Source: Acidobacteriota bacterium (lineage in GTDB: Bacteria > Acidobacteriota > Aminicenantia > Aminicenantales > Saccharicenantaceae). From it: 64,000 nt of DNA. Where the stretch lies: NCBI GenBank assembly GCA_028749205.1, contig JAQULR010000002.1:59644-123643 (forward strand). Direction: 5' to 3'. Below, piece after piece: positions 14,940 to 53,103 of the stretch (the first letter of the stretch is position 1; every line of letters begins with the position of its first letter). The translations under genes and the position numbers were made by a program. The notes under the pieces are model-generated. The model was not told where the DNA came from and searched no databases. It saw nothing but the letters and a program-made list of their open reading frames with translations.

Positions 14940-16631
14940 TTATTTCCAGGGTTTGAAATCTATTAGATCTACAGAAATTGCTTTGTCAACCCGGTAGATA
15001 GAGAAATAATCTCCTACCTCTGGTATCAGTCTGAATTTAAAATAACGAATTAGTCCGTAATCTGATTGAGGTTCAAGCAAACAGGGAATCAAGTTAGCCG
15101 CCGGTTGGGAGCAGGAAATATAAAAATCTCCCCTTTTAATTGCTATTTTCAGAGTTTCAGGCTTAACCTCAAGCCGTTCAGGGGCCAAGTAATCAGCCTT
15201 AGCTGGGACTACCTCTATCGTTTTATAGGCAATAACTTCCTGAGCGGAATCCTTTTCCACCATCTTGACCTGAATTCCATGCTGTAAGAGAACCTCAATC
15301 AAGTCTAATCTGTCCCCAGGAATGATATAGCCTGCCGGTCGGCTGACAGTCAGTCTGGATTCAACCAGGGGAAACCAGTTTTTTACTACTCTGGTTACCA
15401 CTTTCAAATTAGAAGGACCACGATAGGGTTCTAAATCTTCAAAGGTTATATAATCTCCGGCCTTTTTATCAACTTTGAGGATACCTCTAATGGAAGATGA
15501 AGAAGACTCAAAAGCTTTTAGAACCAGTTCTGGCTCTCTGGGGTTTCGAGCATACTGCATTTTTAGATGGATCGAGTCATCGGCAGCTCTTTCCTCAGCC
15601 CGCTTGATGAGATTGGCCCTCTTTTCTCTGACCAGGCTGATAATCTTATCCCCATTGCTGGCCACAATTTCGGCCAGAGCTCTTAGGCCTTCATACTGCC
15701 AGTCAGTTCTGTCCTGAAGAGTTTGAAGGTCATGCCGTGAAGCTCCTTCTTGAATGAACGCCAGGGTTTCATAAATTCCTAAGCTATTCCGGCCATCATT
15801 TAAATCAGTAGTGCTATAGCGTAGCATCATTTCTCTAGTTGCTGTCTGGCCTTCAATTCTGGCTCCGGATGAAGTATCACTTCCCAGTAATTCACGGACT
15901 AAATATTCATGGAAAGCAATCTTCTTCTTTGTTAATTTCTCTTCTATTCCTCTAAGTATTGTCTGCCTTGAATAATCCTGAAGAGCCTGGTTGATGTTCA
16001 GGTTAGAGACGCAGCCTACTGAGACCCGATAATAATCGTCTCCTTTTTCATGGATATCCAGAGTGACTTCAGGTTGATATAAAGAGAAAACCTGGTGAAT
16101 AGCTTTGGTGCTTTCGCCCTCAAGTTTGACATGGTCACGGTTGAGGTCCAGACCGATTTCGTTTTGTCGGACATCATAATAATTTCCGTAAGGATTGGCT
16201 TGAGGAATAATTAGAACGTTGATTTTCTTGAGCAGGGGTTTCAATTCACCAACAGCCAGGTCTCTTAGCAACCTCAGAGCAGCTTCCTTAGCTGATTGTT
16301 CATTACCATGCTGGGAGGCGATGTATAAAACTGTAGCTTTTTTCCGGTTCAGAGCTTCTGGCTCAAGAACTCCCTCCTCTGTCAGAACACAGAGCAGAAG
16401 GTCTCTGGCGGGATAGTTATCAACCTCTTTGGTCCGGCCAATCAGCCTGACCTGTAAAACCTCAGATTTAGCATCTAATAAAGAAATAAACCTGACCACC
16501 TCTTCATACTGGCTGTATTTTACATACCGGCCTTCTTCTGCCGGAGTTTTAATTTGACTGGCGGCTGAAGCCTGCCAGAATCCCATAACCAAAATTATCA
16601 GAAAAATAACGGCTTTTTTCTTAAAAATCAT
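14940..16631 (-). CDS. secreted M14 family zinc carboxypeptidase
   Basis: Signal peptide; IASQHGNEQ (HxxE zinc motif of M14); 563 aa. Confidence 0.7.
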   Translation of the reverse strand: MIFKKKAVIFLIILVMGFWQASAASQIKTPAEEGRYVKYSQYEEVVRFISLLDAKSEVLQVRLIGRTKEVDNYPARDLLLCVLTEEGVLEPEALNRKKATVLYIASQHGNEQSAKEAALRLLRDLAVGELKPLLKKINVLIIPQANPYGNYYDVRQNEIGLDLNRDHVKLEGESTKAIHQVFSLYQPEVTLDIHEKGDDYYRVSVGCVSNLNINQALQDYSRQTILRGIEEKLTKKKIAFHEYLVRELLGSDTSSGARIEGQTATREMMLRYSTTDLNDGRNSLGIYETLAFIQEGASRHDLQTLQDRTDWQYEGLRALAEIVASNGDKIISLVREKRANLIKRAEERAADDSIHLKMQYARNPREPELVLKAFESSSSSIRGILKVDKKAGDYITFEDLEPYRGPSNLKVVTRVVKNWFPLVESRLTVSRPAGYIIPGDRLDLIEVLLQHGIQVKMVEKDSAQEVIAYKTIEVVPAKADYLAPERLEVKPETLKIAIKRGDFYISCSQPAANLIPCLLEPQSDYGLIRYFKFRLIPEVGDYFSIYRVDKAISVDLIDFKPWK

Positions 16632-16667
16632 GTCCTTCTTCCTTTCGTATAAAACTCTTTTGGCTTA

Positions 16668-16710
16668 CCTGGACAAGTCATAAATAATCCAGGTAAACTT
16701 GATTTATTTC
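16668..16710 (+). repeat. intergenic repeat family copy upstream of M14 peptidase gene
   Basis: CCTGGACAAGTCATAAATAATCCAGG + TAAACTTGATTTATTTC. Confidence 0.6.
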
Positions 16711-16775
16711 TTTTTACCAGATGAATATCACCATATATGTTCATATTTGTAGATAATCATAACTTATTATTAAAT

Positions 16776-18050
16776 TTAATTCTCTGACATCTTTTCCTTT
16801 TTGACAACCAATTCTGGTTCAAAAGCCAGATTAATAGTCACCACTTCTCCATTTCTCAAAACTTGAAATTCCACCTCATCTCCCCAGTTGAAACCAGCCA
16901 GAAATATCTTTAGCTCGTTAGGGTCATCAAAATGTTTGTCAGCTACCGAAAGAATAACATCGCCTTTCTTAAATCTCGCCTCTTTAGTTAATGGTTCTTT
17001 AGGATCAGCATTTACTACCAGGTTGCTCAAACCCTCTACCTTTTTCAGGCTAAGGCCAGGAGCTGGGTAATCTGGATAGTCTTTCTTTTTAACACCATAA
17101 ATATAATCAGCCAGCCCTCGGGAGACTTTTAATTTAGAATTTTCCGGAACAACCACTCCAATAACTGTGGCCGAGGGGAGCCGGCTAAGCCGGGAAGCTC
17201 TTAAATTTAATCCTAAATTGTATATCAAATGGCCCGAGCCAGCCAGAACTACCATTCGGCAACCCGTAGTTTCAGCCGCTCTTATCACATTCAGCCCCAT
17301 GGTTTCATCCCAGGCAACCTGAGCTCGATAAAGGCTTTCAAACATAGCTTCCAGGCTGTTTCCTTTCATCTGGGGTGGGATCTCTTCTGACTCAAAAACA
17401 GTTCTGATGAGCAGTCGGTGCTCCTCGTAGTTTAGATCCAGAGGCGGTATCAGCTTCTTTTCTTCTTCACTCATAGCCTGATAGCCCTGTTTCCTGATTT
17501 TAGTGATCAAATCCCTGGGCACATTCAAAGCGAAAACCGGAATTTTCTTTTCTTTAGCCAAATTAAAAATTTTTTGGTAGTAGCCGAAATTAAAATTCCA
17601 GGTAAGGTACCAGTTGATCTGGCGAAGAAACTCTTCTTGACTCAGCTTACCTGCAGCCCAGGAATCAAGGATGGGCTGTAAATCCACCGTAACCTGCTCC
17701 AGCCCTATACCCAGGTTGGGGTCTTGATTATAAAGAGATTTGATAATCCTGACCTGCCAGTCATGCATCTCTTGGTTATCATGAGTTTCGCCCGCATAAA
17801 CCAACCTGACTTTCTTCAGATCCTTAACCATCTGCTCAAACGTAACCACCTTTCCAGAGCGGGCCGAGTAAAGCTGGCCTGCAACCACTTCAAGATACTT
17901 CCCCCGAAGAGCCGGTGGACCGAGGGGAAGAGTCAAGGATTTATCTTGATCTTCAGCCATTAAAACAATAGAAAGGAATACAGTAAGAAAAATGATTCCC
18001 AGCAATTTTCTCTGAATTCGGTTGGTTATTTGCCTGGATTTCCTGGCCAT
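16776..18050 (-). CDS. ChaN/Tiki-family (haem-binding-uptake fold) lipoprotein with C-terminal PDZ domain
   Basis: VYAGETHDNQEMHDWQ matches the ChaN GExHD core; C-terminal GDVILSV...PDZ-like segment; start at Met with GGGAGAAAGAG RBS (ORF track extends to 18083). Confidence 0.6.
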   Translation of the reverse strand: MARKSRQITNRIQRKLLGIIFLTVFLSIVLMAEDQDKSLTLPLGPPALRGKYLEVVAGQLYSARSGKVVTFEQMVKDLKKVRLVYAGETHDNQEMHDWQVRIIKSLYNQDPNLGIGLEQVTVDLQPILDSWAAGKLSQEEFLRQINWYLTWNFNFGYYQKIFNLAKEKKIPVFALNVPRDLITKIRKQGYQAMSEEEKKLIPPLDLNYEEHRLLIRTVFESEEIPPQMKGNSLEAMFESLYRAQVAWDETMGLNVIRAAETTGCRMVVLAGSGHLIYNLGLNLRASRLSRLPSATVIGVVVPENSKLKVSRGLADYIYGVKKKDYPDYPAPGLSLKKVEGLSNLVVNADPKEPLTKEARFKKGDVILSVADKHFDDPNELKIFLAGFNWGDEVEFQVLRNGEVVTINLAFEPELVVKKEKMSEN

Positions 18051-18130
18051 CTCTTTCTCCCTGGAGTTGGTTTGAATAAACATAGTTAATTTAGCTGGTT
18101 CTTAAATTTTATCATTCAGAAATGGCAATC

Positions 18131-19381
18131 TTACTTTAAATCAGGAAATTCAGTCAAAAGACTCTCTAAAGCAAAATTAGCCAGGGATTCCTGAAATCCA
18201 GCTACCTTCTCCGGGCTCTCTCTCTTCCTTTCCCAGATTCTTAGCTGATTCTGTGCTTTTTCCAGAACCTGATTTTCCAGCCCTAATATTTTGTTCAGGA
18301 CACCGTTTCCACCATAAGTTCTAAGCCGGTTGACATTAAGGTATTGACTCATTCTACCGCCTTGATCAGGATAAAGAAAAGCTACCAGTTTACGGGAAAA
18401 GGCATTAAGAGGACTGGTCTTTTCGCCCGGAGCCGAAGCGGCCTCCGGAACCCTCTCTGAATAAGGCCAGACCGGTATGGCCACACTGCTTATCGGCTGG
18501 CCAAGTATTACCCACATGGTAGCCAGGTCAGGCCGGTCAGAAGATGGCGCCCCCTCAAAAACCACAACTGAGGCAGTGCTATTACGATTAATGGTATCAT
18601 TGGTGTTGACATAGAGCGGTCTGGCCGGGTCTTCCGGTAGCTTACAGGATAAGGGATAAGAATGAAGTTTTTCATGGACCAGATCCCTGGCAGCCTGTTG
18701 TAAAATAAACCTAGCATTAAGATCATTGTAAGCCCGGGCTGATTCCGCTAAATGGGACATTCTTTCAAACCGGATAAAGCCCCCACCTTCAAGATAGTCA
18801 GGCGAAGTATAGGAAAAATTTGTCCTGACAATATAACCGAAGGGAGCCACTTTCTTATCATTGGCATCAAAACGGGTGTAATAATCACAGGAAGTCTCAA
18901 AAAAAGAGGCCTCTCCATTAGCATCTATTATCCCGAAGTTAGCTGACAGATCCCATTTTCCTTTTTCTTTCTGGAGAAACTTTTCAAAATCATCAACTGT
19001 GGCGCACTCACCCAGAACCAGCTTCATGAAAACCCCATTATCAGAGCCGCCATCCTTTCTCTCCTTAGCTATCAGATCATCAGCCTGGGAATTCATTATC
19101 GCCAGACCACGGTCATTCAAGCCGGCCCAAATTTCCCGACCTGAAACATCAGCTGAATTAATTAAGCCGATAAAGTTATATTTAGGACCTCTAAAATACA
19201 TTAGTTTGTTCAAAAGGGCAGAAGTATCCCGGTTTTTCCACATCAGGGCCCGGCCATTGCTGGTAGCTTTACCCGAAGCCAAAATCAGGGTGCAAGCTGA
19301 AGCCTCATTCTGAAAGGCCTGGAGAAAAAGAAACAAGGCCATCAAAGTGAAGACTAGAAAATGATTCCTTTTTAGTTTCAT
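18131..19381 (-). CDS. secreted Ntn-hydrolase peptidase, C69 dipeptidase-like
   Basis: Signal peptide then ACTLILASGKATSNGRALMWKNRD, paralleling the C69 N-terminal nucleophile motif CT(T)ILVGK..S.DGS.MIARNED. Confidence 0.6.
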   Translation of the reverse strand: MKLKRNHFLVFTLMALFLFLQAFQNEASACTLILASGKATSNGRALMWKNRDTSALLNKLMYFRGPKYNFIGLINSADVSGREIWAGLNDRGLAIMNSQADDLIAKERKDGGSDNGVFMKLVLGECATVDDFEKFLQKEKGKWDLSANFGIIDANGEASFFETSCDYYTRFDANDKKVAPFGYIVRTNFSYTSPDYLEGGGFIRFERMSHLAESARAYNDLNARFILQQAARDLVHEKLHSYPLSCKLPEDPARPLYVNTNDTINRNSTASVVVFEGAPSSDRPDLATMWVILGQPISSVAIPVWPYSERVPEAASAPGEKTSPLNAFSRKLVAFLYPDQGGRMSQYLNVNRLRTYGGNGVLNKILGLENQVLEKAQNQLRIWERKRESPEKVAGFQESLANFALESLLTEFPDLK

Positions 19382-19625: not shown

Positions 19626-21719
19626 TTATTCCTCTTCAGGCTTTACTCGGCCTTCTTTTATAGCCTCATTAATTATTTTCTGCTGGATCTGGGCAGGTAC
19701 TTCTTCATAATGAGAGAATTCCATTATAAAGGAGCCTCGGCCGCCAGTTATAGAAGTCAGAGTAGGCTCAAAATCGAGCATTTCTGCCATGGGCACCTGG
19801 GCTTTGAGAATTCTCATATTCCCTTTCTGCTCCATACCCTGAACCCGGCCGCGACGCCCGTTTAGCACTCCCATGATGTCACCCATATAAGTTTCTGGAG
19901 TGTATATCTCTACATTCATTACTGGTTCCAAGAGAGTGGGCTTGGCTTCCTTCATTCCTTTCTTAAAAGCCATCGAGGCCGCGATCTTGAAAGCTATATC
20001 AGAAGAGTCAACTTCATGGTAAGAGCCATCATATAGAATAACCTTAAAATCAACAACCGGATATCCAGCTAAGACCCCTTTTTTTCTGGCCTCCTGTATT
20101 CCCTTTTCAATAGAAGGAATAAAATTCTTGGGGATAGCTCCACCAAATATCTTATCTTCAAAGACAAAATCCTGGCCCCTCGATAAGGGTTCCATTTTGA
20201 TCTTGCAATCACCGTACTGACCGCGACCTCCGGTTTGTTTCTTATATTTGCCCTGGACGTCAGACCTACCCTTGATAGTTTCTCTGTAAGGTATTTTTGG
20301 AGGTTTCAGTTCCACATCAACGTTGAAACGTGTTTTAAGTTTCTCGGTAATTATTCGGACATGAAGTTCTCCATTCCCAGAGATTAAAAGCTGAGCCGTT
20401 TCCGGGTCTCTTTCAATTCTGACTGTAGGGTCTTCTTCTATAATCCGGTGGGTAGCCTGAGAAATCTTATCTTCATCTGCTCGGGTCTTGGGCTCGATGG
20501 CAAAGGAGATGGATGGTTCAGGGAATTTAATGGGCTCAAATTCGATTTCCGCTCCTTTGGCACAGAGAGTATCACCGGTTAAAGTGGATTTTAGCTTAGC
20601 TGTGGCCACAATATCGCCAGCCTTAGCTTCTCCTGCGGGAACCTGCTCCTTTCCCTGAAGGAAAAAGAGCCCGCCCAGCTTCTCATCACATTCCTTAGTA
20701 GTGTTGCTAACAGTAGCATCAGGGCTTATTTTTCCTGAGAAGATCCTCATCAAGGAAATCCGCCCAGTATACTGGTCAGAGAAAGTCTTGAAAACCAAGG
20801 CAGAAAAAGGCTCATTTTCTGTTAGCGGCAAATCCTTTTGCTCCCCTTTTATCTTGGCTTTTATCTGGCCTCTCTCAGCCGGCGAGGGCATAAAATTAAC
20901 CAGGGAATTCAGAATGATCTGGGTGCCAATATTTAGCAGGGCTGAAGCGGCATAAATAGGAAATAAGCGCTGTTCCTTAATACTCTTTCTCAGCCCCATT
21001 AGAAGGTCATCAGCATTCAGCTGACCCTGCTCAAAATATTTTTCCATAAGTTTTTCATCGTTTTCAGCTACTATTTCCACCAGCTGGATATATCTTTTCT
21101 CGGCCTCTTCTTTTAAGTTGTCCGGAATCTCGGTTTCCTTAAATTTTCCGCTTTCATCTTTCTCAAATAGATAAGCTTTCTTGTCTATTAGATCAACAAC
21201 ACCAGAAAAGTCTTTTTCTACTCCAATCGGAATCTGGACTGGTATAGCCTGCCGTCCAAAAAATTGCTGGATTTCCTCAACTGTTCGGCTAAAACTAGCA
21301 TTTTCCCGGTCAAGCTTGTTGATGACCATCATCCTCGGGAGCTTAAATTCCTCCAGCATATCCCAGACTTTCTCCGTACCCACTTCTACCCCAGACACTC
21401 CACAGACAACCACCAGAGCTGAATCAACTGCCCTGAGTGCCGCTCTGGTGTCCCAGAGAAAACTGCTGTATCCTGGTGTATCTATGATATTGATTTTATT
21501 ATCGTTCCATTGAACAAAGCAGGCAGCAGAATTAATAGATATTTTTCTTTCAATTTCTTCTAAAGAATAATCAGTAACGGTATTCCCTTTATCCACTTTG
21601 GTCAGCCGACTGGTCACTCCAGCATCAAATAGAATAGCCGCGGCTAAGGAAGTTTTACCACATGAACCATGACCAACCAAGGCCACATTCCTGAGTTTTT
21701 CTGGGCTATAATCTGACAT
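19626..21719 (-). CDS. elongation factor G paralog (EF-G-like GTPase with His-to-Tyr in DTPGH motif)
   Basis: 697 aa with all five EF-G domains alignable; G1 GHGSCGKTS, G3 IIDTPGY (canonical DTPGH), G4 NKLD, G5 SAL. Confidence 0.85.
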   Translation of the reverse strand: MSDYSPEKLRNVALVGHGSCGKTSLAAAILFDAGVTSRLTKVDKGNTVTDYSLEEIERKISINSAACFVQWNDNKINIIDTPGYSSFLWDTRAALRAVDSALVVVCGVSGVEVGTEKVWDMLEEFKLPRMMVINKLDRENASFSRTVEEIQQFFGRQAIPVQIPIGVEKDFSGVVDLIDKKAYLFEKDESGKFKETEIPDNLKEEAEKRYIQLVEIVAENDEKLMEKYFEQGQLNADDLLMGLRKSIKEQRLFPIYAASALLNIGTQIILNSLVNFMPSPAERGQIKAKIKGEQKDLPLTENEPFSALVFKTFSDQYTGRISLMRIFSGKISPDATVSNTTKECDEKLGGLFFLQGKEQVPAGEAKAGDIVATAKLKSTLTGDTLCAKGAEIEFEPIKFPEPSISFAIEPKTRADEDKISQATHRIIEEDPTVRIERDPETAQLLISGNGELHVRIITEKLKTRFNVDVELKPPKIPYRETIKGRSDVQGKYKKQTGGRGQYGDCKIKMEPLSRGQDFVFEDKIFGGAIPKNFIPSIEKGIQEARKKGVLAGYPVVDFKVILYDGSYHEVDSSDIAFKIAASMAFKKGMKEAKPTLLEPVMNVEIYTPETYMGDIMGVLNGRRGRVQGMEQKGNMRILKAQVPMAEMLDFEPTLTSITGGRGSFIMEFSHYEEVPAQIQQKIINEAIKEGRVKPEEE

Positions 21720-21822
21720 CTTTGTTCCTCCATCACTACTTTTTGTAAAGCCAAGAAAGAATTGCTTGAAAAGGCAGCTTTTATATAATAATAGAAAAAT
21801 CTGATTTACTCAAGATAACCGG

Positions 21823-22746
21823 TCAATTTTTTCGGGACCTTTCTTTTTTAAGCCAGGCCAACAGGTCTGCTGGCAGAGGGCTTTCAAATTCCACTTCCTG
21901 ACCAGATGCCGGGTGCTGGAAGGATAATCTCCAGGCATGGAGGAAAAGTCGTGGACATCCCACCGGATGCCTTTTATTTGAGCGGCCGTAGCGTCTATCC
22001 CCGACAATAGGATGACCGGTAGCCGACAGGTGGACTCTAAGCTGATGAGTTCGGCCAGTTATTGGATTTAAGGCCAAAAAACTGCTATTTTTGAATTCTT
22101 CCAATACCTCATAGTGCGTAAGGGCTATCCTGGGCTTTCTGGTGCTGACTGAAATTTTTTCTCTATGGCGAAGGTGTCTTCCTAAAGGTAAGTCGATCAG
22201 CCCTTTTTTCTCTTTAAATTTTCCCACGGCCAGAGCTAAATAGATTTTTTTTACCCGGCGGTCTTCAAACTGCTGGCGAAGTGACTGATAGGCTGGCTGA
22301 GTTCTTGCTATAATTAGCAGTCCCGAAGTATCTTTATCAAGGCGGTGCACAATACCTGGCCTGTCCGGTGAACCCACCGAAGCTATTTCCGGATAATAAT
22401 ACAGAAGACCGTGAACCAGAGTGCCGGTTCTAATTCCAGCTCCGGGGTGAACTACCAGTCCGTCTGGTTTGTTGATTATCAAAATCTGGGCATCTTCATA
22501 AAGAACTTCTAATTTTACCATCTCTGGTTTTAGTTGGCTTTCAGGCTGCTTCCAGATTCTAACTTCAATTAAATCCCCCCGTCTCAGCTTGTATCCTGGT
22601 TTTGAAAGCTGTTTATTCACCAGAATTTCACCCTCTTCTATGGCCCTCTGGATTTGAGTCCGGGTAAAACTCAGTAACCTGGATTTAAGGAATAGGTCAA
22701 GTCTCTCGTTATCGGCCCTATCTATTAGGAATTTTTTTTCAATCAC
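21823..22746 (-). CDS. rluD: RluA-family 23S rRNA pseudouridine synthase (RluD-like)
   Basis: N-terminal S4 domain; HRLDKDTSGLLIIA catalytic motif; 8-nt overlap with lgt. Confidence 0.85.
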   Translation of the reverse strand: MIEKKFLIDRADNERLDLFLKSRLLSFTRTQIQRAIEEGEILVNKQLSKPGYKLRRGDLIEVRIWKQPESQLKPEMVKLEVLYEDAQILIINKPDGLVVHPGAGIRTGTLVHGLLYYYPEIASVGSPDRPGIVHRLDKDTSGLLIIARTQPAYQSLRQQFEDRRVKKIYLALAVGKFKEKKGLIDLPLGRHLRHREKISVSTRKPRIALTHYEVLEEFKNSSFLALNPITGRTHQLRVHLSATGHPIVGDRRYGRSNKRHPVGCPRLFLHAWRLSFQHPASGQEVEFESPLPADLLAWLKKERSRKN

Positions 22747-23536
22747 TTTTTCTTTTTTTTAATACCAGGTACAAAATAAGACCTGCAGCCAGCCCAACTA
22801 AACAGTAAAATTGAGATAAGGACAAGCTACTGAAGGCTGTCTGCCCCCGAATAAGATAATCCTGAAGGTCATGGTCTCCCCGGAAAAACTCAGTGAAAAA
22901 ACGGATTATCGAATAGTTAATTACATAGAAACAAAAAACCTGACCGGAGAATTTTCTTTTTTTTAAGATGGCTACAAGAATCAAAAAATTTAGAAAATTC
23001 AGGGCAGATTCATAGAGCTGTACCGGGTGTAGAGGAATATTAAGTGGAATACCTGTCAGGCCATGGGCATATTCATTTTGGAAAACTACCGCCCAGGGTT
23101 GAAGACATTCTCGGCCATAACAGCAGCCTGCTGAAAAGCAACCGAGACGGCCAAAGCCATGCCCCAAAGCTATCGCTGGGCCCACCAGGTCAGCAGTTGG
23201 CCACAAAGGGATTTTTTTCTTTCGAAAATAGATTATGGCAAAAATTAAGCCGAAGGTCAGGCCACCCTGGAAAACTCCACCTGACCTGATCAGGGAAAGT
23301 AGCTCCCCCGGATTCTCCAGATAATAGGTTAAATTAGCAAAGAACAGAGTTAATTTTGCCCCAAGAAGAGAAACCAGAATTATCCAGAAGGCAGCATCCA
23401 GCAATTTCCCGGTCTCATATCCTTGTTTTTTTGCCTGGGCATATAAAAACCAGATAGCAGCCCCTACTCCTACCGCCATAAAAAAACCATAGGTGTGAAC
23501 TGTAATCGGACCTATTCGGAAGAGGATTGGGTGCAT
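22739..23536 (-). CDS. lgt: prolipoprotein diacylglyceryl transferase
   Basis: MHPILFRIGPITVHTYGFFMAVG Lgt signature N-terminus, polytopic; adjacent to lspA. Confidence 0.9.
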   Translation of the reverse strand: MHPILFRIGPITVHTYGFFMAVGVGAAIWFLYAQAKKQGYETGKLLDAAFWIILVSLLGAKLTLFFANLTYYLENPGELLSLIRSGGVFQGGLTFGLIFAIIYFRKKKIPLWPTADLVGPAIALGHGFGRLGCFSAGCCYGRECLQPWAVVFQNEYAHGLTGIPLNIPLHPVQLYESALNFLNFLILVAILKKRKFSGQVFCFYVINYSIIRFFTEFFRGDHDLQDYLIRGQTAFSSLSLSQFYCLVGLAAGLILYLVLKKRKSD

Positions 23537-24018
23537 TTTTTCTGACTCCTAAAAACGGAAATAATCAGAATTATAGCCCCTATAGTAATGCAACTATCGG
23601 CTATATTAAAAAAAGGCCAGTGAAAACTACCTACATAAAAATCAATAAAATCAATTACATAACCTCTGATGAGCCGATCGGCGATGTTGCCCATAGCACC
23701 GCTGATAATCAGGGCAAAAGATATTCTTGTCAAAATCATTTCTTTAGGTGTCTTAAGGAAATAATAAGTAATTATGGCAAAGGCCAGGAGGGCTCCAACA
23801 TTCAAGAAGATCAGAGCCAGAGGATTGCTGGTAGTGCTGAGAAAACCAAAAATTGCTCCGCGGTTATGAACCCTGGTCAGATTAAAAAATCCGGGAATGA
23901 TCTGGACTACTTCGTAAAGGCTCAAAGATCTGGCTATTAGATATTTGGTCAGCTGGTCCAGAAACAGCCAGAAAAATATAAAGGCAAAATAAAAAACATT
24001 CTTCTTGGTCACTTTCAT
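23512..24018 (-). CDS. lspA: lipoprotein signal peptidase II
   Basis: NRGAIFGF and FNIADSCITIG motifs; 168 aa; 4-nt overlap with ileS. Confidence 0.9.
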   Translation of the reverse strand: MKVTKKNVFYFAFIFFWLFLDQLTKYLIARSLSLYEVVQIIPGFFNLTRVHNRGAIFGFLSTTSNPLALIFLNVGALLAFAIITYYFLKTPKEMILTRISFALIISGAMGNIADRLIRGYVIDFIDFYVGSFHWPFFNIADSCITIGAIILIISVFRSQKKCTQSSSE

Positions 24019-26804
24019 CTTAAATGTAATTCATCTTTCAGAACCTGGCCACAGCGGGCGCAGACTTCCGGATTATCTGGGTCCTGACCTACACTGGCCG
24101 AGAAATTCCAGCAGCGCTGGCATTTCTGGCCCTCTGCTCGGGTAACAGTCACCGATAGGTTGCTTCCTTCTGCCGACTCAACCTGGACCTCTGAGGCAAT
24201 AAAGATGGTGGTTAAATCTTCTCTAAATTCATCCAGCAGGTCAAAAAGCTCATCTGGAGCCTTAAACATGAGACAGGCTTCCAAAGAATTACCTATCAAT
24301 CTGGTTTCCCTGGCTTTTTCCATTTCTTTCTGAACCAGTTCCCTGACCTCCAACAGCCGATCGACCTTTTTCATAAAGTCTGAAGGTAGCCACAACTGGT
24401 TATCTTCTGGAAAATAACCCAAATGAACTGAATCTTCTTTTCCCTGGAAACTGGGCATATTCTCCCAAACCTCATCAGCGGTGAAGGGTAGAATAGGTGC
24501 CATGAGCTTTATGGTGGTCTCCAGGACTTTGAATATAGCTGTCTGGCCAGAACGGCGGATGGTAGAGCAGGGACCAGAACAGTACATTCGATCCTTGATT
24601 ACATCTAAGTAAAAAGAACTCAGATCAACCGTAAAAAAATTGTAAAGAGAATGAAAGACAATGTGAAATTCGTAATCATCGTAAGCCTTGATAACTCGCT
24701 GCTGTACCTGGCGGCTTTTTTCCAGAATCCAGCGGTCAAGCCAGTGTAATCCCTCTGGTCTAATACTATCTGTATCTGGATTAAAATCATAAAGGTTTCC
24801 CAGCAAAAATCGCCAGGTGTTGCGGATCTTCCGGTAGGCCTCTATCAGCCTCTGAAGAATTTCTTGACCAAAACGAGCATCTTCCTTATAGTTCAGCATG
24901 GCCACCCACAGTCTCAGGATCTCAGCACCATGTTGAGAAATGATCTCTGTAGGTTCAATTACATTACCGAGGGATTTAGACATAGCCCTTCCCTGCTCGT
25001 CAAGGACAAAACCATGGGTTAAGCAGGTCTGGTAAGGTGAACCATTTCTGGCCCCAACCCCAATGACCAGAGAGCTGTTAAACCAGCCCCGATACTGATC
25101 ATGGCCTTCAACATAAATATCTGACGGCCAGGGTAATTCAGGTCTCTTCCCAAGAATACCATGGCTGGCACCTGATTCGAACCAAACATCAAGGATATTA
25201 TGTTCTTTCTGGAAGTTAGAGCCCCCACACTGAGGACATTTCTGCTCGGGCGGCAGAAGCTCTGATACAGATTTTTCAAACCAGGCCCTGGAACCGTATT
25301 CTTCGAAAATATCAGCTACCCGCCTGGTAATCTCCCCGTCAGCCAGGATATAGCCGCAGGTTTGGCAGTAAAAAGCCGGAATAGGCACACCCCAGGACCT
25401 CTGTCTGGAAATACACCAGTCCGGGCGGCTTTGCATCATGTTGGTGATTCTTTCTTCTCCCCAGTAAGGGATCCATCTTATCTTTTTTATTTCTTCGAGC
25501 ACCCGTTGTCGCAACTGGTTTTTGTCCATAGAGATAAACCACTGTTCGGTTGCTCGAAATATTACCGGGCGCTTACATCTCCAGCAGTGAGGATAAGAAT
25601 GGCTGACTTCAGCTTTCTTGAGTAGAGTGCCATCTTTTTCCATATCCTCAATTATTCTGGGGTTGGCTTCAAAAACATTAAGACCGGCATATCTTTCTAC
25701 CTGGGCTAGAAATCTTCCAGCTTCATCCACCGGAGTATAAACATCGAGACCATAGGCTATCCCGGTCAGATAATCTTCATAGCCGTGGCCAGGAGCTGTG
25801 TGAACACAACCTGTTCCATCTTCCAGAGTAACATAATCTGCCAGGACCAAAACCGACTCTCGATCGATGAATGGATGTCGAGCTTTCAGCCCTTCCAGAT
25901 CTCGACCCGGGAAAACGGCCAGTTCCTTATATTGTTCCCATCCAAACTCTTCCGCTATTACCGGCAACAACCTTCTGGCCATGATATAAACTTCCCCTGC
26001 CGACTCGGCAGCCACATACTCATAATCAGGATGAACGGCAATAGCCAGGTTGGCCGGAAGAGTCCAGGGAGTAGTTGTCCAGATTATGATTGAAATTTTT
26101 TTCCCCTGGAGCTGTGGAATTCTCTCTGTCAGGTCAGAAATTAAGGGAAATTTTATATAGATTGAAGGCGAGGTTTTTTCTTTATATTCAATTTCTGCTT
26201 CAGCTAAAGCAGTCTGGCAGTTCAGGCACCAGTGGACCGGCCTTTTGCCTTTATAAATATTACCCGATTCAAAGAAGGCCGCCAGAAACCTCAGGACCTC
26301 TGCTTCATACCCAGGATTCATAGTTAAATATGGCTTTTCCCATTCACCAAAGACACCCAGGCGGATGAATTCTTCTTTCTGAATATCAATAAACTTCAAA
26401 GCGTATTGGCGGCATTCTTCTCTTATTTCAATTACAGAAAGCTCTTTCTTTTTTTCACCCAAAAGCTGATCAACCCTGATTTCAATTGGCAGGCCATGGC
26501 AATCCCAGCCAGGAACGTAAAGGGAAAGGTAGCCTTTCATCGTTCTGGATTTGATAATAAAATCTTTCAGGATCTTGTTCAAAGCAGTTCCCAGATGGAT
26601 GTGCCCATTGGCATATGGTGGCCCATCATGGAGCACATAGGTTGGTCGCCCCTTCCGGCTTTTTATAATCCTTTCATAGAGATTAGTCCTGGTCCACTTT
26701 TCGATTATTTCTGGTTCCCTCTGAGCCAGCTTAGCCTTCATGGGAAATGAAGTCTGGGGCAAATTTAAGGTCTTTTTCAGATCAAGTTGTTCTGACATAA
26801 GCAA
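24015..26804 (-). CDS. ileS: isoleucyl-tRNA synthetase
   Basis: PPYANGHIHLGTALNK (HIGH) and KMSKSLGN motifs, C-terminal zinc-finger cysteines; 929 aa. Confidence 0.95.
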   Translation of the reverse strand: MLMSEQLDLKKTLNLPQTSFPMKAKLAQREPEIIEKWTRTNLYERIIKSRKGRPTYVLHDGPPYANGHIHLGTALNKILKDFIIKSRTMKGYLSLYVPGWDCHGLPIEIRVDQLLGEKKKELSVIEIREECRQYALKFIDIQKEEFIRLGVFGEWEKPYLTMNPGYEAEVLRFLAAFFESGNIYKGKRPVHWCLNCQTALAEAEIEYKEKTSPSIYIKFPLISDLTERIPQLQGKKISIIIWTTTPWTLPANLAIAVHPDYEYVAAESAGEVYIMARRLLPVIAEEFGWEQYKELAVFPGRDLEGLKARHPFIDRESVLVLADYVTLEDGTGCVHTAPGHGYEDYLTGIAYGLDVYTPVDEAGRFLAQVERYAGLNVFEANPRIIEDMEKDGTLLKKAEVSHSYPHCWRCKRPVIFRATEQWFISMDKNQLRQRVLEEIKKIRWIPYWGEERITNMMQSRPDWCISRQRSWGVPIPAFYCQTCGYILADGEITRRVADIFEEYGSRAWFEKSVSELLPPEQKCPQCGGSNFQKEHNILDVWFESGASHGILGKRPELPWPSDIYVEGHDQYRGWFNSSLVIGVGARNGSPYQTCLTHGFVLDEQGRAMSKSLGNVIEPTEIISQHGAEILRLWVAMLNYKEDARFGQEILQRLIEAYRKIRNTWRFLLGNLYDFNPDTDSIRPEGLHWLDRWILEKSRQVQQRVIKAYDDYEFHIVFHSLYNFFTVDLSSFYLDVIKDRMYCSGPCSTIRRSGQTAIFKVLETTIKLMAPILPFTADEVWENMPSFQGKEDSVHLGYFPEDNQLWLPSDFMKKVDRLLEVRELVQKEMEKARETRLIGNSLEACLMFKAPDELFDLLDEFREDLTTIFIASEVQVESAEGSNLSVTVTRAEGQKCQRCWNFSASVGQDPDNPEVCARCGQVLKDELHLR

Positions 26805-34471: not shown

Positions 34472-36319
34472 TTACAATCCTAACTCATTTATTTTTTTGA
34501 TTATTTCTACAAATTCATCAGTTTCAGCCTCAGCATAGGTTTGCTCCAGCTCACTTAAGAGTTTAGCCAGTTTCCAGGCCAGATCAGATTTCAGAGGTTT
34601 CCATACCTGTCGCGGATCCTGGAAGACCTTTGGGTGAAGGTCGCCCACCGGTCGTCCCCGATCATCTTGAGGCAATTCCTGAAAAAGAATTTGGTTGACT
34701 ATAGTTAAAAAATGATCCCGCAAATTAATGAAATACATTAAACTGTAATATTCTTGTAAAAAACACCTTTCACTTAAGGATGCCTGGCTCAGAGCTTGAA
34801 GAAAGCCAGCGGGTGGTTCATAAGTATAGCATTCTTTCATAGCTTGAATGAGTTTATCGGTCTGAGAGACAGCCGCTGGTAGAGCTTCATTTAGATAAAA
34901 TTCCGAAAGCCGCTGTAAATCAAAATCAAAAGACAATTTTTGGCTTTTTTCTTTTCTGGACGACAGAACAAATACTGGTCTGCTGCTGCTAGCCAGATAG
35001 ATCTCTCTTCGATCGAAAAACCCATTACCATCAGTATCAAAATAACGAATTTCTCCGACTGCCGGCATCCCGGCAAAATTGCCTATCGGCAGCCAGCCTT
35101 CCTCTGCCCCGAAAAGATGAATTTTCTGATCAAGCTGGCTGTAATAAAGTTCAACAGAACCATCCAGGTTGTAGGCCACTTCTCTCCGGACATTCCATTT
35201 CTGGATATTGGAGGAAGAACCAGCCAGTTGTCTTCGCTCCCACAGCCAACCTATTCCATGCCCCTCAAATCCTTTAGACTCCGGTTGTCTATCCAGCTTC
35301 TCATCAGGAAATTCTTTCCAGGATAAACCGGCCCTCTGGGCCTGGTATCCTTGGATCTGATCTAAAATCATTTCATAGGGAATTGCCAGAGCTTCTTGAG
35401 GAGGCCTTCTTTTGTCAGAATAGATTCGGAATTCCTCAAGGTTATATTCTTGTTTTCCTTCCAGAACCAGCCCCAGGTCATAATGAAAAGGGTTTTCCAG
35501 GCTATTATTCCGATCAGCATCATAACTTATATCAAGGCTTCCGATGACTGGTCCAGTAGCTTCGTCCTCCAGATTAAAATGAACTACCAGGTCTGTTAAA
35601 CTGTCACTATTAAGGTCAAAGCTGGCTGCCGGACAAATCTCTGCCGGCCACCAGCTTCTTTTTGAGCCTTGGTAGATATTTTTAAAATAAAGCTTTTTAC
35701 CAGAAAAATTCTGGCTAAATCTCTCAGCCATCAAGTCCAGTGGATTTTTAAACTTAATGATTTCACCGATATGCTCAAAATCATAACCAAACCAACCCTT
35801 GACCAGATATCCTCTTTCAAAATACCGAACCTCCATAAAATCCGCCTGACCATCTCCGTTCTCATCCGCATAATCCACCATCAAATCTACCTGACCATCG
35901 CGGTTCAAATCATAAAGATAACAGTCATCATGAAAATCGCCACCGGCTTTAAGGCTGTTATCTCCATCATCATCAATTGTCCAGACCAAAATTTCAGCTT
36001 TAGTTCCTCCGCCAAGATCATAACTTTCAATCCTAACAGCCATCCTGTCTCTGGCTTCGCCACCTTCATCAAGTATCAACGTCTCCCCAGGGCTGAGGTT
36101 CTGGGCTTTCCTCCACCATTTCTTTGACTTTAGGCTGGGCATCCGACCTTGAACCGATAAGGCCGTTGACTTCATCCACCAGGGCCCGTCTCGGCCCTCG
36201 CCAGCCCTTAGAGGTTTACTGCCTGTTTTCCCCTGACCAATAAAGCCTGAAGTGCCTATAATTAGACTGGCAATCAAAACGATAAACAAAAAGGATCGAT
36301 ATCTGTTATTTTTGTTCAT
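34472..36319 (-). CDS. secreted protein with FG-GAP/EF-hand-like Ca-binding DxNxDGxxD repeats (function unknown)
   Basis: Signal peptide; repeated DLNRDGQVD, DENGDGQAD, DLNSDSLTD, DTDGNGFFD motifs; 615 aa. Confidence 0.5.
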   Translation of the reverse strand: MNKNNRYRSFLFIVLIASLIIGTSGFIGQGKTGSKPLRAGEGRDGPWWMKSTALSVQGRMPSLKSKKWWRKAQNLSPGETLILDEGGEARDRMAVRIESYDLGGGTKAEILVWTIDDDGDNSLKAGGDFHDDCYLYDLNRDGQVDLMVDYADENGDGQADFMEVRYFERGYLVKGWFGYDFEHIGEIIKFKNPLDLMAERFSQNFSGKKLYFKNIYQGSKRSWWPAEICPAASFDLNSDSLTDLVVHFNLEDEATGPVIGSLDISYDADRNNSLENPFHYDLGLVLEGKQEYNLEEFRIYSDKRRPPQEALAIPYEMILDQIQGYQAQRAGLSWKEFPDEKLDRQPESKGFEGHGIGWLWERRQLAGSSSNIQKWNVRREVAYNLDGSVELYYSQLDQKIHLFGAEEGWLPIGNFAGMPAVGEIRYFDTDGNGFFDRREIYLASSSRPVFVLSSRKEKSQKLSFDFDLQRLSEFYLNEALPAAVSQTDKLIQAMKECYTYEPPAGFLQALSQASLSERCFLQEYYSLMYFINLRDHFLTIVNQILFQELPQDDRGRPVGDLHPKVFQDPRQVWKPLKSDLAWKLAKLLSELEQTYAEAETDEFVEIIKKINELGL

Positions 36320-36666: not shown

Positions 36667-38079
36667 ATGTATCCTAAGATAATTCAGGCAGTCGAAAGGC
36701 AAATCCGGCCAAAATTAAATCCAGAATTCGACTATCAATTCCTTCCCTTAGGCAAATTTATAGTCTGGTATCGGGATCTAGCCAAAGAAAACTCGGAGAA
36801 GATTAGAATCGGTCTGGAAAGAGAAAATGGCCTTCTGGCCGGCTGGACAGATAAAATCCTTCCTTTATCAGAGGAAACACTGCCTCTAACCCAGGTCTAT
36901 GTTGAAAAATTGATAAAATTTTTACTCTGGCAAAAAGGCGGTTGGAAAATCTATTTCCAGGGCCCCGAGCTAATTTACCAGCACCTTAAAAAACTGTATT
37001 CTTCCCAGGGTCAAAGAGGATTTGATGTCGATTTAATGAGTTCAGTTTACGGAAAACCTTTTGAAGTGATAATGGTTTCAGCCGGTCAGTTTCCTGAAGA
37101 TAGAGAAAGCCATCTTATCCTCGGAGGACACTTAGATGGTTGCCGCCTGGGTTTTGACCTTGGAGCCAGCGATTTTAAGGTAGCCGCAGTTAAGGAAGGT
37201 CAGGTGGTCTTCAGCCAGGAAATCCCCTGGAATCCCCAGGAACAACCTGACCCTTCCTATCATTATCATCATCTTCAGTCTGGACTCAAAGAAGCCGAGA
37301 CTCATTTACCAAAGGTTCAAGCTATCGGAGGAAGTGCCGCTGGAATTTACATTAACAATCAGGTCAAAATCGCCTCTCTCTTTCGAGCAGTTCCAAAAAG
37401 CATTTTTGAAAAAAAAGTAAAAAATCTATTTGTCGAAATGCAGAAAGAATGGGCTGTTCCTTTTGAAATCATCAATGATGGTGAAATCACCGCCCTGGCC
37501 GGTCATCTCAGTCTCAACCGGACAGCCATTCTGGGGATAGCCATGGGTTCAAGTGAAGCCGGAGGTTATTTGAATTCAAAAGGCCATTTACCCGGTTGGC
37601 TGGATGAGCTGGCTTTTGCTCCGGTTGACCTGAATCCAGCGGCCGCTGTGGATGAATGGTCGGGCGATCGGGGCGTAGGGGCCATGTACTTTTCCCAGCA
37701 GGCTGTAAACAAACTGGCTACGACAGCCGGCTTCAGCTTTTCCGGGGCAGAAAACCTTCCGGTTAGACTTAGAAAAATCCAGGGCTTTGCTGAAAAGGGG
37801 AATGACCGGGCTGTCAGGGTTTTTAAAGATCTCGGAATTTATCTGGGATATACCATCCAGCTTTACTCCCTTTTTTATGATTACAGAAATCTGTTGATCC
37901 TGGGCCGGGTAACCTCTGGTCTGGCTGGTGAACTGATCAAACAAGAGGCCGAAAGAGTCCTGATTGAAGAATTTCCTGAATTAAAAGAAAAGATAGAAAT
38001 TCATCTAACCGATGAGAAGGGCCGTCGAGTGGGGCAAGCGGTAGCGGCTGCTACTTTACCAGAGATTAAAAAATCATAA
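36667..38079 (+). CDS. ROK/ASKHA-family sugar kinase homolog with ~150-aa N-terminal domain of unknown function
   Basis: C-terminal ~320 aa has GFDLGASDFKVAAV and INDGEITALAGHL ASKHA-kinase motifs but no ROK Cys zinc motif; unique N-terminal extension; directly upstream of nagB. Confidence 0.55.
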   Translation: MYPKIIQAVERQIRPKLNPEFDYQFLPLGKFIVWYRDLAKENSEKIRIGLERENGLLAGWTDKILPLSEETLPLTQVYVEKLIKFLLWQKGGWKIYFQGPELIYQHLKKLYSSQGQRGFDVDLMSSVYGKPFEVIMVSAGQFPEDRESHLILGGHLDGCRLGFDLGASDFKVAAVKEGQVVFSQEIPWNPQEQPDPSYHYHHLQSGLKEAETHLPKVQAIGGSAAGIYINNQVKIASLFRAVPKSIFEKKVKNLFVEMQKEWAVPFEIINDGEITALAGHLSLNRTAILGIAMGSSEAGGYLNSKGHLPGWLDELAFAPVDLNPAAAVDEWSGDRGVGAMYFSQQAVNKLATTAGFSFSGAENLPVRLRKIQGFAEKGNDRAVRVFKDLGIYLGYTIQLYSLFYDYRNLLILGRVTSGLAGELIKQEAERVLIEEFPELKEKIEIHLTDEKGRRVGQAVAAATLPEIKKS

Positions 38080-49778: not shown

Positions 49779-52531
49779 CTAATAATTCAGATAAAAAGTA
49801 AGAGCAAAGGTCCTGGGTGGAGCATAGGAGGTTGGCATCATGTAGGTAGGCTGATCACCCCGAACATCAACTCTTAGGGCAGTCTGCATATCAAACAAAT
49901 TCATCATTCTGGCTTCAATCATCCCTCTAAATTTGCCCAGCGGGATTTCATAGGTAAGCTGCAAGTCGCAATTAACCCAGGTTTTTAATCGATGAGAGCC
50001 AGCTTTTTCCAGATAACGAAAATAATTCCCGTAATAATCCATACCTCGTTTTTCCCATGGAGCTCCACTCTGAACTCTTAGATAGCCACCCAGGCTGAAC
50101 CTTTTGGCAAATTCCCAGGTACCGAAGACTTTCAGGACATGGGACCTATCGCCAGACAGAAGTCCTTCCCTATTGGGATCACTCAGGTAAAGCCCTGGAG
50201 CATCCTCAATATAAGAAGAAGCATAAAAGAGCGCCGTTCCAGCCTGATAGTCGAGGTCCCAATTGCCTGCCAGACGGCTCCAGGTATAGGACAGGTTAAA
50301 AGACCAGCGATCAGCATACTGCCTTTTTAATTCAAAGGTTACCGCTTTATAAGTTCTTTTGGCTTGGCCAGCATAAAAATCAACAAAGTCTGCCTGTGGG
50401 ATGAGTGCCTGTATTTCTGGTGGCAAATTCTGCCATGACATTAACTGACCATCAAGGTTACCATAGACATAGCTGGATGGGCTGGTTTCACGGTTGCGAG
50501 TCGGGAAATCTTCAATAACATGTTTAAAATAGCGGTAGTCACCCCAGAGTTCAAAAGTCCAGTGACTATTTAACGGACGGCTATAGCCAACCACGAACTC
50601 ATCGGTATAAGTCGGTTTTAAATCAGGCAAAATAATTTTACCAGTTTCGTTGCCCTGAATGACGGTGGCCAGAATAGTTCCGTCTGCCTGAGCAATGTAA
50701 GCATCTGTTCTGTAAATTCGGATTGGAGCAGCAGCTCTGGCAATTGAGCGGTTATCCATATTGTTATAGCGCCCGAAACTGGCAAATATCTTATCTCTAG
50801 CTTTCAAGCTGGGTGTAAATGTAAAGCCTATTCTTGGCTGGATCTCTTTATCAAAATTGAAAGTCAAGAAAGTGTGCTTCTGGTCAGTTTTGCTGCTAAA
50901 CTCATCCCGGTTAGCCAGCAAGCCAAGTGTTAAGGTAAAGCGCTCGCCAATGGTGACATTATCCTGAAGAAAGAGGCCATAAGTCCGCCCGCGAGAATCC
51001 TGAGCCGGCTGCTCTGAATAATAGCGAGCTCTGAACGCATCCTGACCGCCATAGGTGGTGGTAATGATGCTGCCCCAGCCGTTGGCCAAACGATCCAGAT
51101 ATTCGCCGCCATCATCATAGCTAAAGCCGACCTTTATCACATGGGAACGACCGGTAAAATCGAGATATTTGGTCAGAACTAACTTAAATTCATCCCGGAA
51201 GAAGTTCTGGGTATTATATTCAGAAGCGGCACCCACATACTGGCCAGAAGCCGTCGCTCCACCCCCAATATAACCGGTCGCCGTTCTAAAATAACCCATA
51301 GTCCACGGCTCAAGATAATTGAATGGTTCAGGTAAATAACCCAGTTCAGTTATTGGCAAGCTGGAGTAATTTTCTTTGACATGATCATATTTTGCCTCCA
51401 GCAGGGTTGATTGATTAATTGTCCAGACCCACGAAGCATAGATGATTCTTGATAGGCCATCCCCGTTGAGGGCTACTGTTGGATGAGAATTTACTCCAAC
51501 CCCGGTATTCTTTTCAGTGTAATCGTTATTCCTAATACTTACAGCAAACAAATGGGCCCGCCAGGGATTGGCAGTAATTTTGGCGAACAATTCAGTCGAA
51601 TTAGTTTTAGCATCAGGCACAGGACCGAGGTTATTTATTCGGCCAGTAGTCTTGGAATAAGGTAAATTTGCCGAGACATACCACCAGACTTTATCTTTTA
51701 TTATCGGACCCCCCAACCCTATAGAGGGAGTATACTGATCATATTTGGTAACTAAACTCGGGTCATGACTTTTCCAGGTAAAGTCAGCAGGATGAAGGAT
51801 AAAACGGAGAGTTCCAGATACTTTATTTGAGCCCGACCTGGTGATGGCATTAGTCACCATACCAGCGGCCCGCCCGAATTCAGCGCTAATGCCTCCCCTT
51901 TTTATGTTAACTTCCTGAATATCCATTTCGGAAAAATTGGCGCCCAGATATCCATAAAAGGGATTGGTAATATTGGAGCCATCATAAAGATAGACATTAT
52001 CCTGCTTATTACCGCCTGCATTGGGAGCAAAATCGCGGTTATCAGCTACCCCTGGGGCCAGTTGAAAAAGAGAAGAATAAGAACGTCCGAGAGGTAATTT
52101 CTGGACTATCTCAGATACCCAGTTAGATGAGACTTCAGTCGACTTCAGGTCAATTACTGGGGTAGCAGCTATGACCGTAACTTCCTCGTAAATTTTTCCA
52201 ATAGGCTGCAAGACGGCATTAACATAAGTCTGACGGTCAACTGCCACCACTACTTGAGCTGTAAAATCGATCATTTCGGGATGAGTTACCACCAGGGAAT
52301 ACTGGCCGGGTGGCAGTGCTTGAAACAGGAAGCCGCCGTCTTTTCCGGTAATAAACTCCCTGCCGAGTGGCAAAGGCTTTCCAGAAATGACAACCGTAGC
52401 CCCTTCCAGAATCTGGCCATCAGCACTTTTTGCCACCCCGCGAACTGAACCTCTTTCCTGGGCCAGACCCTGAACAGAGGCCAGGAATAGAACTAACGAT
52501 ACTATAAAGATGATTTTAAGATTTTTAGGCA
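49779..52531 (-). CDS. TonB-dependent receptor-like outer membrane protein with N-terminal carboxypeptidase-regulatory-like domain
   Basis: Signal peptide, CarboxypepD_reg-like beta-sandwich (GSVRGVAKSADGQ...), plug and long beta-barrel, aromatic C-terminus; start at ATG with GGAGGG RBS (ORF track extends to 52607). Confidence 0.75.
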
Positions 52532-52592
52532 TCTTGCCCTCCTTATAGCACCATCCAATTTTGATTAAACTTCCCTTCCAGTCCTTAAAACT

Positions 52593-52619
52593 AATTATAT
52601 TTGTCATTTTTTTAAGTCA
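52593..52619 (-). promoter_or_regulatory. candidate promoter for the first TBDR gene (TTGACT-N15-TATAAT on minus strand)
   Basis: Perfect -35 and -10 hexamers but short 15-nt spacer; ~75 nt upstream of the start codon. Confidence 0.3.
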
Positions 52620-52910
52620 ATAAAAATAGTTGTTAGACCTGCATTATTCATAAAACTTAACAAGTCTTGAGATTTCGAATCATCATATGTAGGGAGATTT
52701 GGACATGATACGATCTTCCTATGCATCACAAAGTCCAGGGATTTAGCTTAGGAATGAATGGTAAATTTTGATAATTTTTCGGTGTGGGGTTCTGCTTACT
52801 GTATAAGAAGCAGATAGTACACTTTAGCCTGTAGAGGCTCCGACTAAATTGGCCAGTATGCTAAATTTTCATCGAGAATGATCTATCGAGCCTGGGATAA
52901 AGTAGGTTTA

Positions 52911-52936
52911 TCTGGATTATTTATAAATACTCTAGG
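52911..52936 (+). repeat. intergenic repeat family, palindrome-only variant between the two TBDR genes
   Basis: TCTGGATTATTT-AT-AAATACTCTAGG; the ATAAATACTCTA 12-mer recurs at 8150. Confidence 0.5.
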
Positions 52937-53103
52937 TGATATAAGTTTTTGTCTTTATATATTTCTTAAGCCTCCTTGATGATTGCCCCAAATCCACTTT
53001 TCAGATGCAGAATCCAGGATTGCCATGTTAATTTGACAACTTCTTTGGCCACTTTGTTACAAAAATAAGACTCTAAACAGAATTCTTTTCTTTTTCATTC
53101 GCC

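Follow-up and report, generated by a model that had tools for sequence, protein, structure and literature searches.

A probable Aminicenantes EF-G2 (EFG II subfamily) with tyrosine at the switch II histidine position, and its possible action as an auxiliary translocase

A 64,000-nucleotide stretch of the genome of an Acidobacteriota bacterium (class Aminicenantia, family Saccharicenantaceae; contig JAQULR010000002.1, positions 59,644 to 123,643), hereafter the window, carries at 19626..21719 on the minus strand a gene for a protein related to elongation factor G (EF-G). The gene is one long open reading frame (ORF) that starts with ATG, encodes 697 residues followed by a stop codon and is preceded by a ribosome-binding site, GGAGG, 7 nt 5' of the ATG. 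An original prediction, made from the letters alone, described it as an EF-G paralog in which the catalytic histidine of the DTPGH motif is replaced by tyrosine and the P-loop is degenerate, and proposed that ribosome-stimulated hydrolysis is likely impaired. The ORF, its NCBIfam and Pfam matches and its signature residues indicate that the gene is almost certainly the Aminicenantes (Acidobacteriota) orthologue of EF-G2, which belongs to subfamily EFG II. The missing histidine is real but not new, and the protein is an ordinary member of a known branch. The window belongs to a Ca. Saccharicenans-like metagenome-assembled genome: an identical protein in the database carries the label 'elongation factor G [Acidobacteriota bacterium]', and the matches that follow it, with 82-86% identity, come from Ca. 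Saccharicenans.

All five EF-G domains were matched in Pfam, each well over its cut-off. The G domain with its G' insertion occupies residues 8-279 (20883..21698, PF00009), domain II residues 304-387 (20559..20810, PF22042 and PF03144), domain III residues 399-472 (20304..20525, PF14492), domain IV residues 474-593 (19941..20300, PF03764) and domain V residues 596-681 (19677..19934, PF00679), all on the minus strand, as are the motifs described below. The two tip loops of domain IV, GGRGQYG (20211..20231) and YHEVDSS (20001..20021), are intact, with both glycines present in the former, and the acidic G' motif EKLMEKYFE is kept. In a phmmer comparison, residues 3-684 aligned with residues 6-689 of Thermus thermophilus EF-G, and blastp gave 44% identity over 683 residues. 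The predicted end-to-end correspondence with EF-G, from domain G to domain V, is therefore borne out by both the alignment and the five Pfam matches.

The GTPase motifs GHGSCGKTS, ERKISI, DTPGY, NKLD and SAL read as the original prediction had given them. The G1 motif or P-loop GHGSCGKTS (context VGHGSCGKTS) covers residues 16-24 (21648..21674), and its Gly16 and the next residue, Leu25, belong to the EFG II signature. The switch I (G2) motif ERKISI lies at residues 57-62 (21534..21551), and its Ser61 stands where RGITI has the Mg-coordinating Thr. The G3 motif in switch II is DTPGY (context IIDTPGYSSF), residues 80-84 (21468..21482), with the TAC codon of Tyr84 at 21468..21470. The G4 motif NKLD, for guanine specificity, is at residues 134-137 (21309..21320), and the G5 motif SAL (context AASAL) at residues 259-261 (20937..20945). 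In the alignment with T. thermophilus EF-G the G1-G3 region is gap-free, which places Tyr84 under the catalytic His of DTPGH and rules out an alignment shift that would restore a histidine. The P-loop, however, cannot be called degenerate: it has the complete Walker A pattern GxxxxGK[ST] and departs from AHIDAGKT at variable positions only. The nucleotide-binding set is complete in the sequence (GxxxxGK[ST] in G1, DxxG in G3, NKxD in G4 and SAx in G5), whereas the canonical EFG I set AHIDAGKTT / RGITI / DTPGH is absent. As for the catalytic elements, the P-loop His17, the switch I Arg and the switch I gate Ile are kept, whereas the switch II His is changed to Tyr and the P-loop gate Ile to Gly.

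The tyrosine is not an oddity of one gene, because the homologues and the known EF-G2s are also without the histidine. Of the 120 closest homologues (74-100% identity), 119 have Tyr and one has Phe behind D[TSC]PG; NK[LM]D is found in 119 of the 120, and GxxxxGK[ST] is likewise conserved. Tyr is also invariant in the full-length Aminicenantes orthologues of 80 loci taken from GTDB species representatives. The substitution, for which the original prediction had proposed a check in orthologues, is thus a conserved one, and the view of the protein as a non-canonical EF-G relative without the histidine positioned by the sarcin-ricin loop stands. In remoter Acidobacteriota relatives (52-58% identity) this position is occupied by Tyr or Phe and even by Lys (DTPGKGVF); the Lys form occurs in some Terriglobia-type relatives and Phe in many. 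We also noted that many Aminicenantes have DCPGY, with Cys for the Thr of DTPG. These lineage differences were noted in the match regions of L051, L054, L055, L056 and L064 and in L014, L017, L020-L031 and other loci.

A HMMER search over 1.84 billion cluster representatives (50% identity) extended this picture. In the best 150 matches, which were those analysed, the His position is occupied by Y (66), F (32), D (12), H (8), L (7) or A (5), and more rarely by S, N, E, V, G, T or I. Six of the eight His-bearing proteins are canonical EF-Gs; the canonical ones include those of Dictyoglomus and Gluconobacter, and one (P0238) is encoded in an rpoBC-rpsL-rpsG-fusA-tuf-S10 operon of an assembly with 34% guanine-cytosine (GC) content (locus L081). 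A residue other than His, mostly Tyr or Phe, is the norm across the very large EF-G2 clade. P0157 and P0158, which fall on the EFG II side in the tree described below, have His after DxPG (DCPGHTDF and DTPGHPNY) together with non-canonical P-loops (AGQRGCGKT and IGTFGSGKT). Their histidine may have been retained or may be the product of a reversion, and they could help to date the His loss. Another representative, P0228, is a protein of 1040 residues in which a canonical EF-G (RGITI, DTPGHVDF) stands behind an N-terminal extension of ∼348 residues; this could reflect a fusion or an artefact of gene calling.

The EFG II subfamily has a type I signature that consists of Gly16 for Ala, Leu25 for Thr, Ser for the Mg-coordinating Thr, Thr291, Gly333 and Lys or Arg at 352 (PMC3150367). 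A relaxed G2 with a conserved Ser is a trait of the subfamily, and seven further positions are conserved (Margus et al. 2011, PMC3150367). In that paper, G3 is described as DxPG only, the lost histidine is not discussed and the main text makes no mention of Acidobacteriota or Aminicenantes. We examined these positions in an alignment of the window's protein with the EF-G2 and EF-G1 of T. thermophilus and 144 other sequences (139 of them cluster representatives, the other 5 close homologues), using the numbering of PDB 1WDT, the sequence of which was checked residue for residue. All six type I residues are present (G16, L25, S61, T291, G333 and K352), Gly333 and Lys352 being inside the domain II stretch and Thr291 just upstream of it. 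At the same positions, the six canonical sequences have A, T, T, I/V, A and G, with the exception of a Leu at position 25 in the Dictyoglomus EF-G. Of the type II positions D216, V250, L264, K471, K472, E513 and G603, five of the seven are identical; at 250 and 264 the protein has Ile (V250I and L264I), conservative changes that are found in other members too. The features that the original prediction had singled out are real, but they are hallmarks of the known and widespread EFG II subfamily, which it had overlooked.

The tree and the family models agree with this placement. In a neighbour-joining tree of 153 sequences and 686 trimmed columns, the six canonical AHIDAGKT/DTPGH sequences are separated from the rest with a bootstrap of 100/100, and the window's protein, Thermus EF-G2 and Bacteroides EF-G2 are all on the non-canonical side; the tree is from a distance method only and covers neither spdEFG1/2 nor Tet references. 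In NCBIfam, the best model for the window's protein is NF009381 (962.5 bits, versus 739.6 for TIGR00484). This model is also the best for Thermus EF-G2 (809.6 bits), whereas the canonical Dictyoglomus EF-G shows the opposite order (1148.8 for TIGR00484 and 869.6 for NF009381). The scores with NF058620 (Bacteroidota EF-G2; 614.6 versus a cut-off of 1000) and NF009377 (actinobacterial-type EF-G2; 612.1 versus 890) are below the cut-offs.

The gene is under strong purifying selection, since nonsynonymous divergence (dN) from the orthologues is low (0.08-0.19) while synonymous sites are saturated, so that the ratio to synonymous divergence (dN/dS) can be stated as an upper bound only. The saturation is explained by the divergence of GC content among close orthologous regions: the window has 43.6% GC, versus 53-55% in Ca. 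Saccharicenans loci with 85% protein identity. The G domain evolves ∼2-fold faster than domains II-V.

We then compared the protein with the known systems. It shares with the EFG II subfamily as described (PMC3150367) all six type I residues, an RxxSI-type switch I, intact G1, G3, G4 and G5 motifs, the G' acidic region, a G domain less conserved than domains IV-V and a location outside the str operon, and differs from it in the two conservatively changed type II positions. With canonical EF-G (EFG I, fusA; T. thermophilus, PDB 1DAR) it has in common the 44% end-to-end identity, the five domains and the type of domain IV loops; however, the AHIDAGKTT, RGITI and DTPGH motifs are all altered, the domain II signatures differ and the str context is missing. 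T. thermophilus EF-G2 (PDB 1WDT/2DY1; Connell et al. 2007) also has Tyr after DxPG (LLDAPGYGDF), a P-loop of the type GHxxxGKTxL (VGHAGSGKTTL in its sequence), NF009381 as the best model, the five-domain fold and the domain IV loops. The two proteins nevertheless have only 38% identity, the Thermus protein is 32 residues shorter, its switch I is LHRTTV versus ERKISI, and it has Val at position 291 where the window's protein has Thr. Despite its Tyr, T. thermophilus EF-G2 is reported to be a ribosome-dependent GTPase and to support translocation and poly(Phe) synthesis.

The other two characterized EF-G2s behave differently. Bacteroides thetaiotaomicron EF-G2 (PDB 7UVP/8DMF) falls on the tree's EFG II side, is without the catalytic His and has the EF-G architecture. 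It is 36% identical to the window's protein and, in the 7UVP sequence, differs in having IIDCPGSDDF (Ser at the His position), LGSSGSGKT in G1 and YGYSV in G2; moreover, its domain IV region is ∼20 residues longer, with the tips GGAGQFG and KMHPVDSN. The NF058620 score likewise puts the window's protein outside the Bacteroidota EF-G2 clade. According to a paper that cites Han et al. 2023, the B. thetaiotaomicron protein translocates without GTP hydrolysis, under carbon limitation. Mycobacterium smegmatis EF-G2 (PDB 9K0Z/9K10) has Tyr98 in place of the His88 of EF-G1, a residue that we took from a 2026 mycobacterial preprint rather than from a sequence checked here; in the same preprint, the H88Y change in EF-G1 nearly abolished the GTPase. 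M. smegmatis EF-G2 shows minimal ribosome-dependent GTPase and no ribosome recycling, binds the non-rotated 70S ribosome and is called stress-specific. Its gene, like that of the window, lies outside the str operon, and it is a non-essential paralog. However, its P-loop is GPSGG, its switch I is without the canonical residues and its G4 is altered, whereas the window's protein keeps His17, the switch I Arg and Ile, and NKLD.

Taken together, we regard as the best explanation, with a probability of roughly 60%, that the gene encodes an EF-G2 of the EFG II subfamily acting as an auxiliary slow, GTPase-poor translocase or stress factor. The protein is a complete five-domain translational GTPase, which would work beside a canonical EF-G. 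It is predicted to bind a guanine nucleotide, because G1, the Mg-coordinating switch I Ser, DxPG, NKxD and SAx are kept. It would dock at the ribosomal factor-binding site as EF-G does, with domain IV reaching into the decoding centre, a prediction based on the G' acidic helix and on the GGRGQYG and YHEVDSS tip loops, all of which are retained. Canonical hydrolysis, which uses the sarcin-ricin loop together with the switch II His and a hydrophobic gate between P-loop and switch I, would not be usable, because of the His to Tyr and P-loop gate Ile to Gly changes. GTP binding, and not fast ribosome-triggered hydrolysis, would then drive the action of an auxiliary slow translocase or stress-time factor, with B. 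thetaiotaomicron EF-G2 as the model and M. smegmatis EF-G2 as a partial one. This mechanism, drawn by analogy, is tentative, and its chances fall a little short of even; the data show the family, the motif states, the conservation, the synteny and the purifying selection, while nucleotide binding, ribosome binding, low GTPase, the physiological role and a canonical fusA in the genome are predictions.

Several observations weigh against this explanation. No characterized EF-G2 is close to the protein (38% for Thermus EF-G2 and 36% for Bacteroides EF-G2, with 44% for Thermus EF-G1), and the TIGR00484 score of 739.6 exceeds the EF-G equivalog cut-off of 659.4. With its P-loop His17, switch I Arg and gate Ile, the protein also looks more canonical than M. 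smegmatis EF-G2. Loss of GTPase activity cannot be read from the tyrosine alone, because Thermus EF-G2 has Tyr and hydrolyses GTP. Finally, the canonical fusA of the source genome was found neither in the 64-kb window nor in the 80 related loci, the DNA examined amounting to ∼2% of a genome. The impaired hydrolysis proposed by the original prediction, which fits the M. smegmatis and B. thetaiotaomicron proteins but not the active Thermus EF-G2 with the same Tyr, is thus plausible but not safe, and the non-ribosomal function that it had also envisaged finds no support.

The Thermus protein provides the alternative that survives best, although we consider it unlikely: the protein could be a second, weaker GTP-hydrolysing translocase, with ribosome-stimulated and raised intrinsic GTPase obtained through alternative catalysis. 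Thermus EF-G2 has DAPGY and GHAGSGKTTL and yet is reported to be active in GTPase and poly(Phe) assays, the same NF009381 model is the best for both proteins, and Gly16 has been linked to higher intrinsic GTPase (PMC3150367). The retained P-loop His, switch I Arg and Ile and G' acidic helix would also suit such an activity. However, the H88Y change nearly kills the GTPase of mycobacterial EF-G, M. smegmatis EF-G2 with its Tyr98 is inactive and Bacteroides EF-G2 is without GTPase. Moreover, the residue found here varies across the clade (Y, F, K, D, L or A), which argues against a conserved catalytic role of the side chain.

It is improbable, in our view, that the protein is a stress-time regulator or protector that sits on the non-rotated 70S ribosome without translocating or recycling. 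The energy-limited, anoxic habitats of Aminicenantes would suit such a factor, and M. smegmatis EF-G2, with Tyr98, offers the precedent of a GTPase-minimal, non-recycling and stress-specific binder of the non-ratcheted 70S. Against it, the window's protein keeps the translocation-critical loops GGRGQYG, with both glycines, and YHEVDSS, and its P-loop GHGSC is far closer to the canonical one than GPSGG. In addition, the neighbours of the gene are co-oriented housekeeping genes and not a recognizable stress locus.

A dedicated recycling EF-G that works with RRF, as Borrelia EF-G2 (spdEFG2) or mitochondrial EF-G2 does, appears quite implausible. A division of labour among EF-G paralogs is known, and rluD adjoins the gene; RluD modifies helix 69 of 23S rRNA, which is part of the bridge disrupted in recycling. 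The recycling specialists, however, are members of other subfamilies in which both the catalytic His and the GTPase are retained (His145 in mitochondrial EF-G2), whereas the window's protein has the EFG II signature residues. Furthermore, the loop I glycine that is absent in mitochondrial EF-G2 is present here, and M. smegmatis EF-G2, from the EFG II side, cannot recycle.

We also considered whether the gene might be the sole or main EF-G of the organism and not a paralog, a reading that is scarcely credible. A tblastn search with the protein matched the EF-G2 gene alone in the window, and it gave one match per locus and no canonical fusA in the 80 related loci, among them L012, a 22-kb part of the complete Aminicenantes chromosome OY969586.1. 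Similarly, the scan of the genome collection returned EF-G2 orthologues only, and a literature search for Aminicenantes and elongation factor G found nothing. The TIGR00484 score above the cut-off and the housekeeping neighbours point in the same direction. However, the place of a canonical fusA is the str operon, as at locus L081, and that region is outside the sampled loci. In a survey of 305 genomes, a single EF-G was always of the EFG I type, with no exception (PMC3150367), and every characterized EF-G2 coexists with an EF-G1. These two observations give a strong prior that a canonical fusA lies elsewhere in the genome and hence that the term paralog, which presumes such a gene, is probably appropriate. 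In a milder version, fusA would be present and EF-G2 might be a constitutive, energy-saving and hydrolysis-independent translocase in an energy-starved subsurface lineage. If fusA were truly missing, the bulk translation of a natural lineage would proceed without the universal switch II histidine.

It is virtually out of the question that the gene encodes a Tet(M)/Tet(O)-like protection protein, is a decaying pseudogene or owes its tyrosine to a sequencing error or a peculiarity of the strain. In favour of such readings is only that a general EF-G-like GTPase is encoded outside the str operon; against them, the NF012153 (tet_protect) score is 326.4 bits versus a cut-off of 775, Tet proteins keep DTPGH, the ORF is intact, hundreds of orthologues share the Tyr and dN is much lower than dS.

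With the EF-G2 assignment, the impression of an anomalous His-to-Tyr change is corrected, and the finding matters little alone. It adds the Aminicenantes, and Acidobacteriota, to the lineages of the EF-G2 clade, and the neighbours of the gene are conserved there. How EF-G2s work without the His, and why the Thermus protein hydrolyses GTP and those of Mycobacterium and Bacteroides do not, is the broader question, which bears on translation at low energy. The protein is a further natural variant for this question, more canonical-like than the three characterized EF-G2s, but it opens no new line of attack. Only an absence of canonical fusA in Aminicenantes, for which the chances are slim indeed, would raise the interest.

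The EF-G2 gene forms the end of a nadB-ileS-lspA-lgt-rluD cluster. Upstream of it, on the same minus strand and identified by Pfam, lie ileS (24015..26804), lspA (23512..24018), lgt (22739..23536) and rluD (21823..22746), and the order nadB-ileS-lspA-lgt-rluD-EFG2 is kept in most Aminicenantes loci. A 103-bp spacer (21720..21822, minus strand), which holds the GGAGG, separates rluD from the EF-G2 gene. In this spacer, TTGAGT-17-TATTAT at 21813..21785 on the minus strand is promoter-like, as a consensus match only; promoter- and terminator-like matches are no commoner in the region than in shuffled sequence, so that this site is no evidence of a promoter and an operon is at most putative. Downstream, after 244 bp, three co-oriented genes with signal-peptide-like N-termini follow (14940-19381, minus strand): one for an AAT/C45-like protein that has a lipobox-like site, ASAC, one for a PDZ-containing member of the ChaN/Tiki superfamily and one for a protein resembling M14 carboxypeptidases. 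In many Aminicenantes loci, the last two (ChaN-PDZ and M14) are kept downstream as a pair. The rpsL-rpsG-fusA-tuf context of the str operon is not found at the gene, and its location outside that operon and near secreted peptidase-like genes agrees with the original prediction, with the ileS-lspA-lgt-rluD genes on its upstream side. In three distant Acidobacteriota loci (L053, 10001-13827; L068, 785-4842; L069, 3196-7298), lgt and rluD adjoin the EF-G2 gene on the downstream side. The recurring lgt/rluD adjacency might be functional or might be only housekeeping synteny.

The window otherwise has genes of housekeeping and central metabolism, which include def-fmt, aconitase B, IDH, MDH, sucCD, nadC-nadB, TldD/PmbA, glutamine synthetase and TonB-type outer-membrane proteins. 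At 49779-56262 on the minus strand, two adjacent outer-membrane proteins of 942 and 1030 residues have an N-terminal CarboxypepD_reg domain and TonB-dependent-receptor-like barrels. The ORFs at 34472-36319 (minus strand, 615 residues) and 36667-38079 (plus strand, 470 residues) gave no Pfam match at E <= 1e-3. Finally, the ileS ORF was called from a TTG codon ('LLMSEQ...'), and the ATG two codons downstream is probably the real start.

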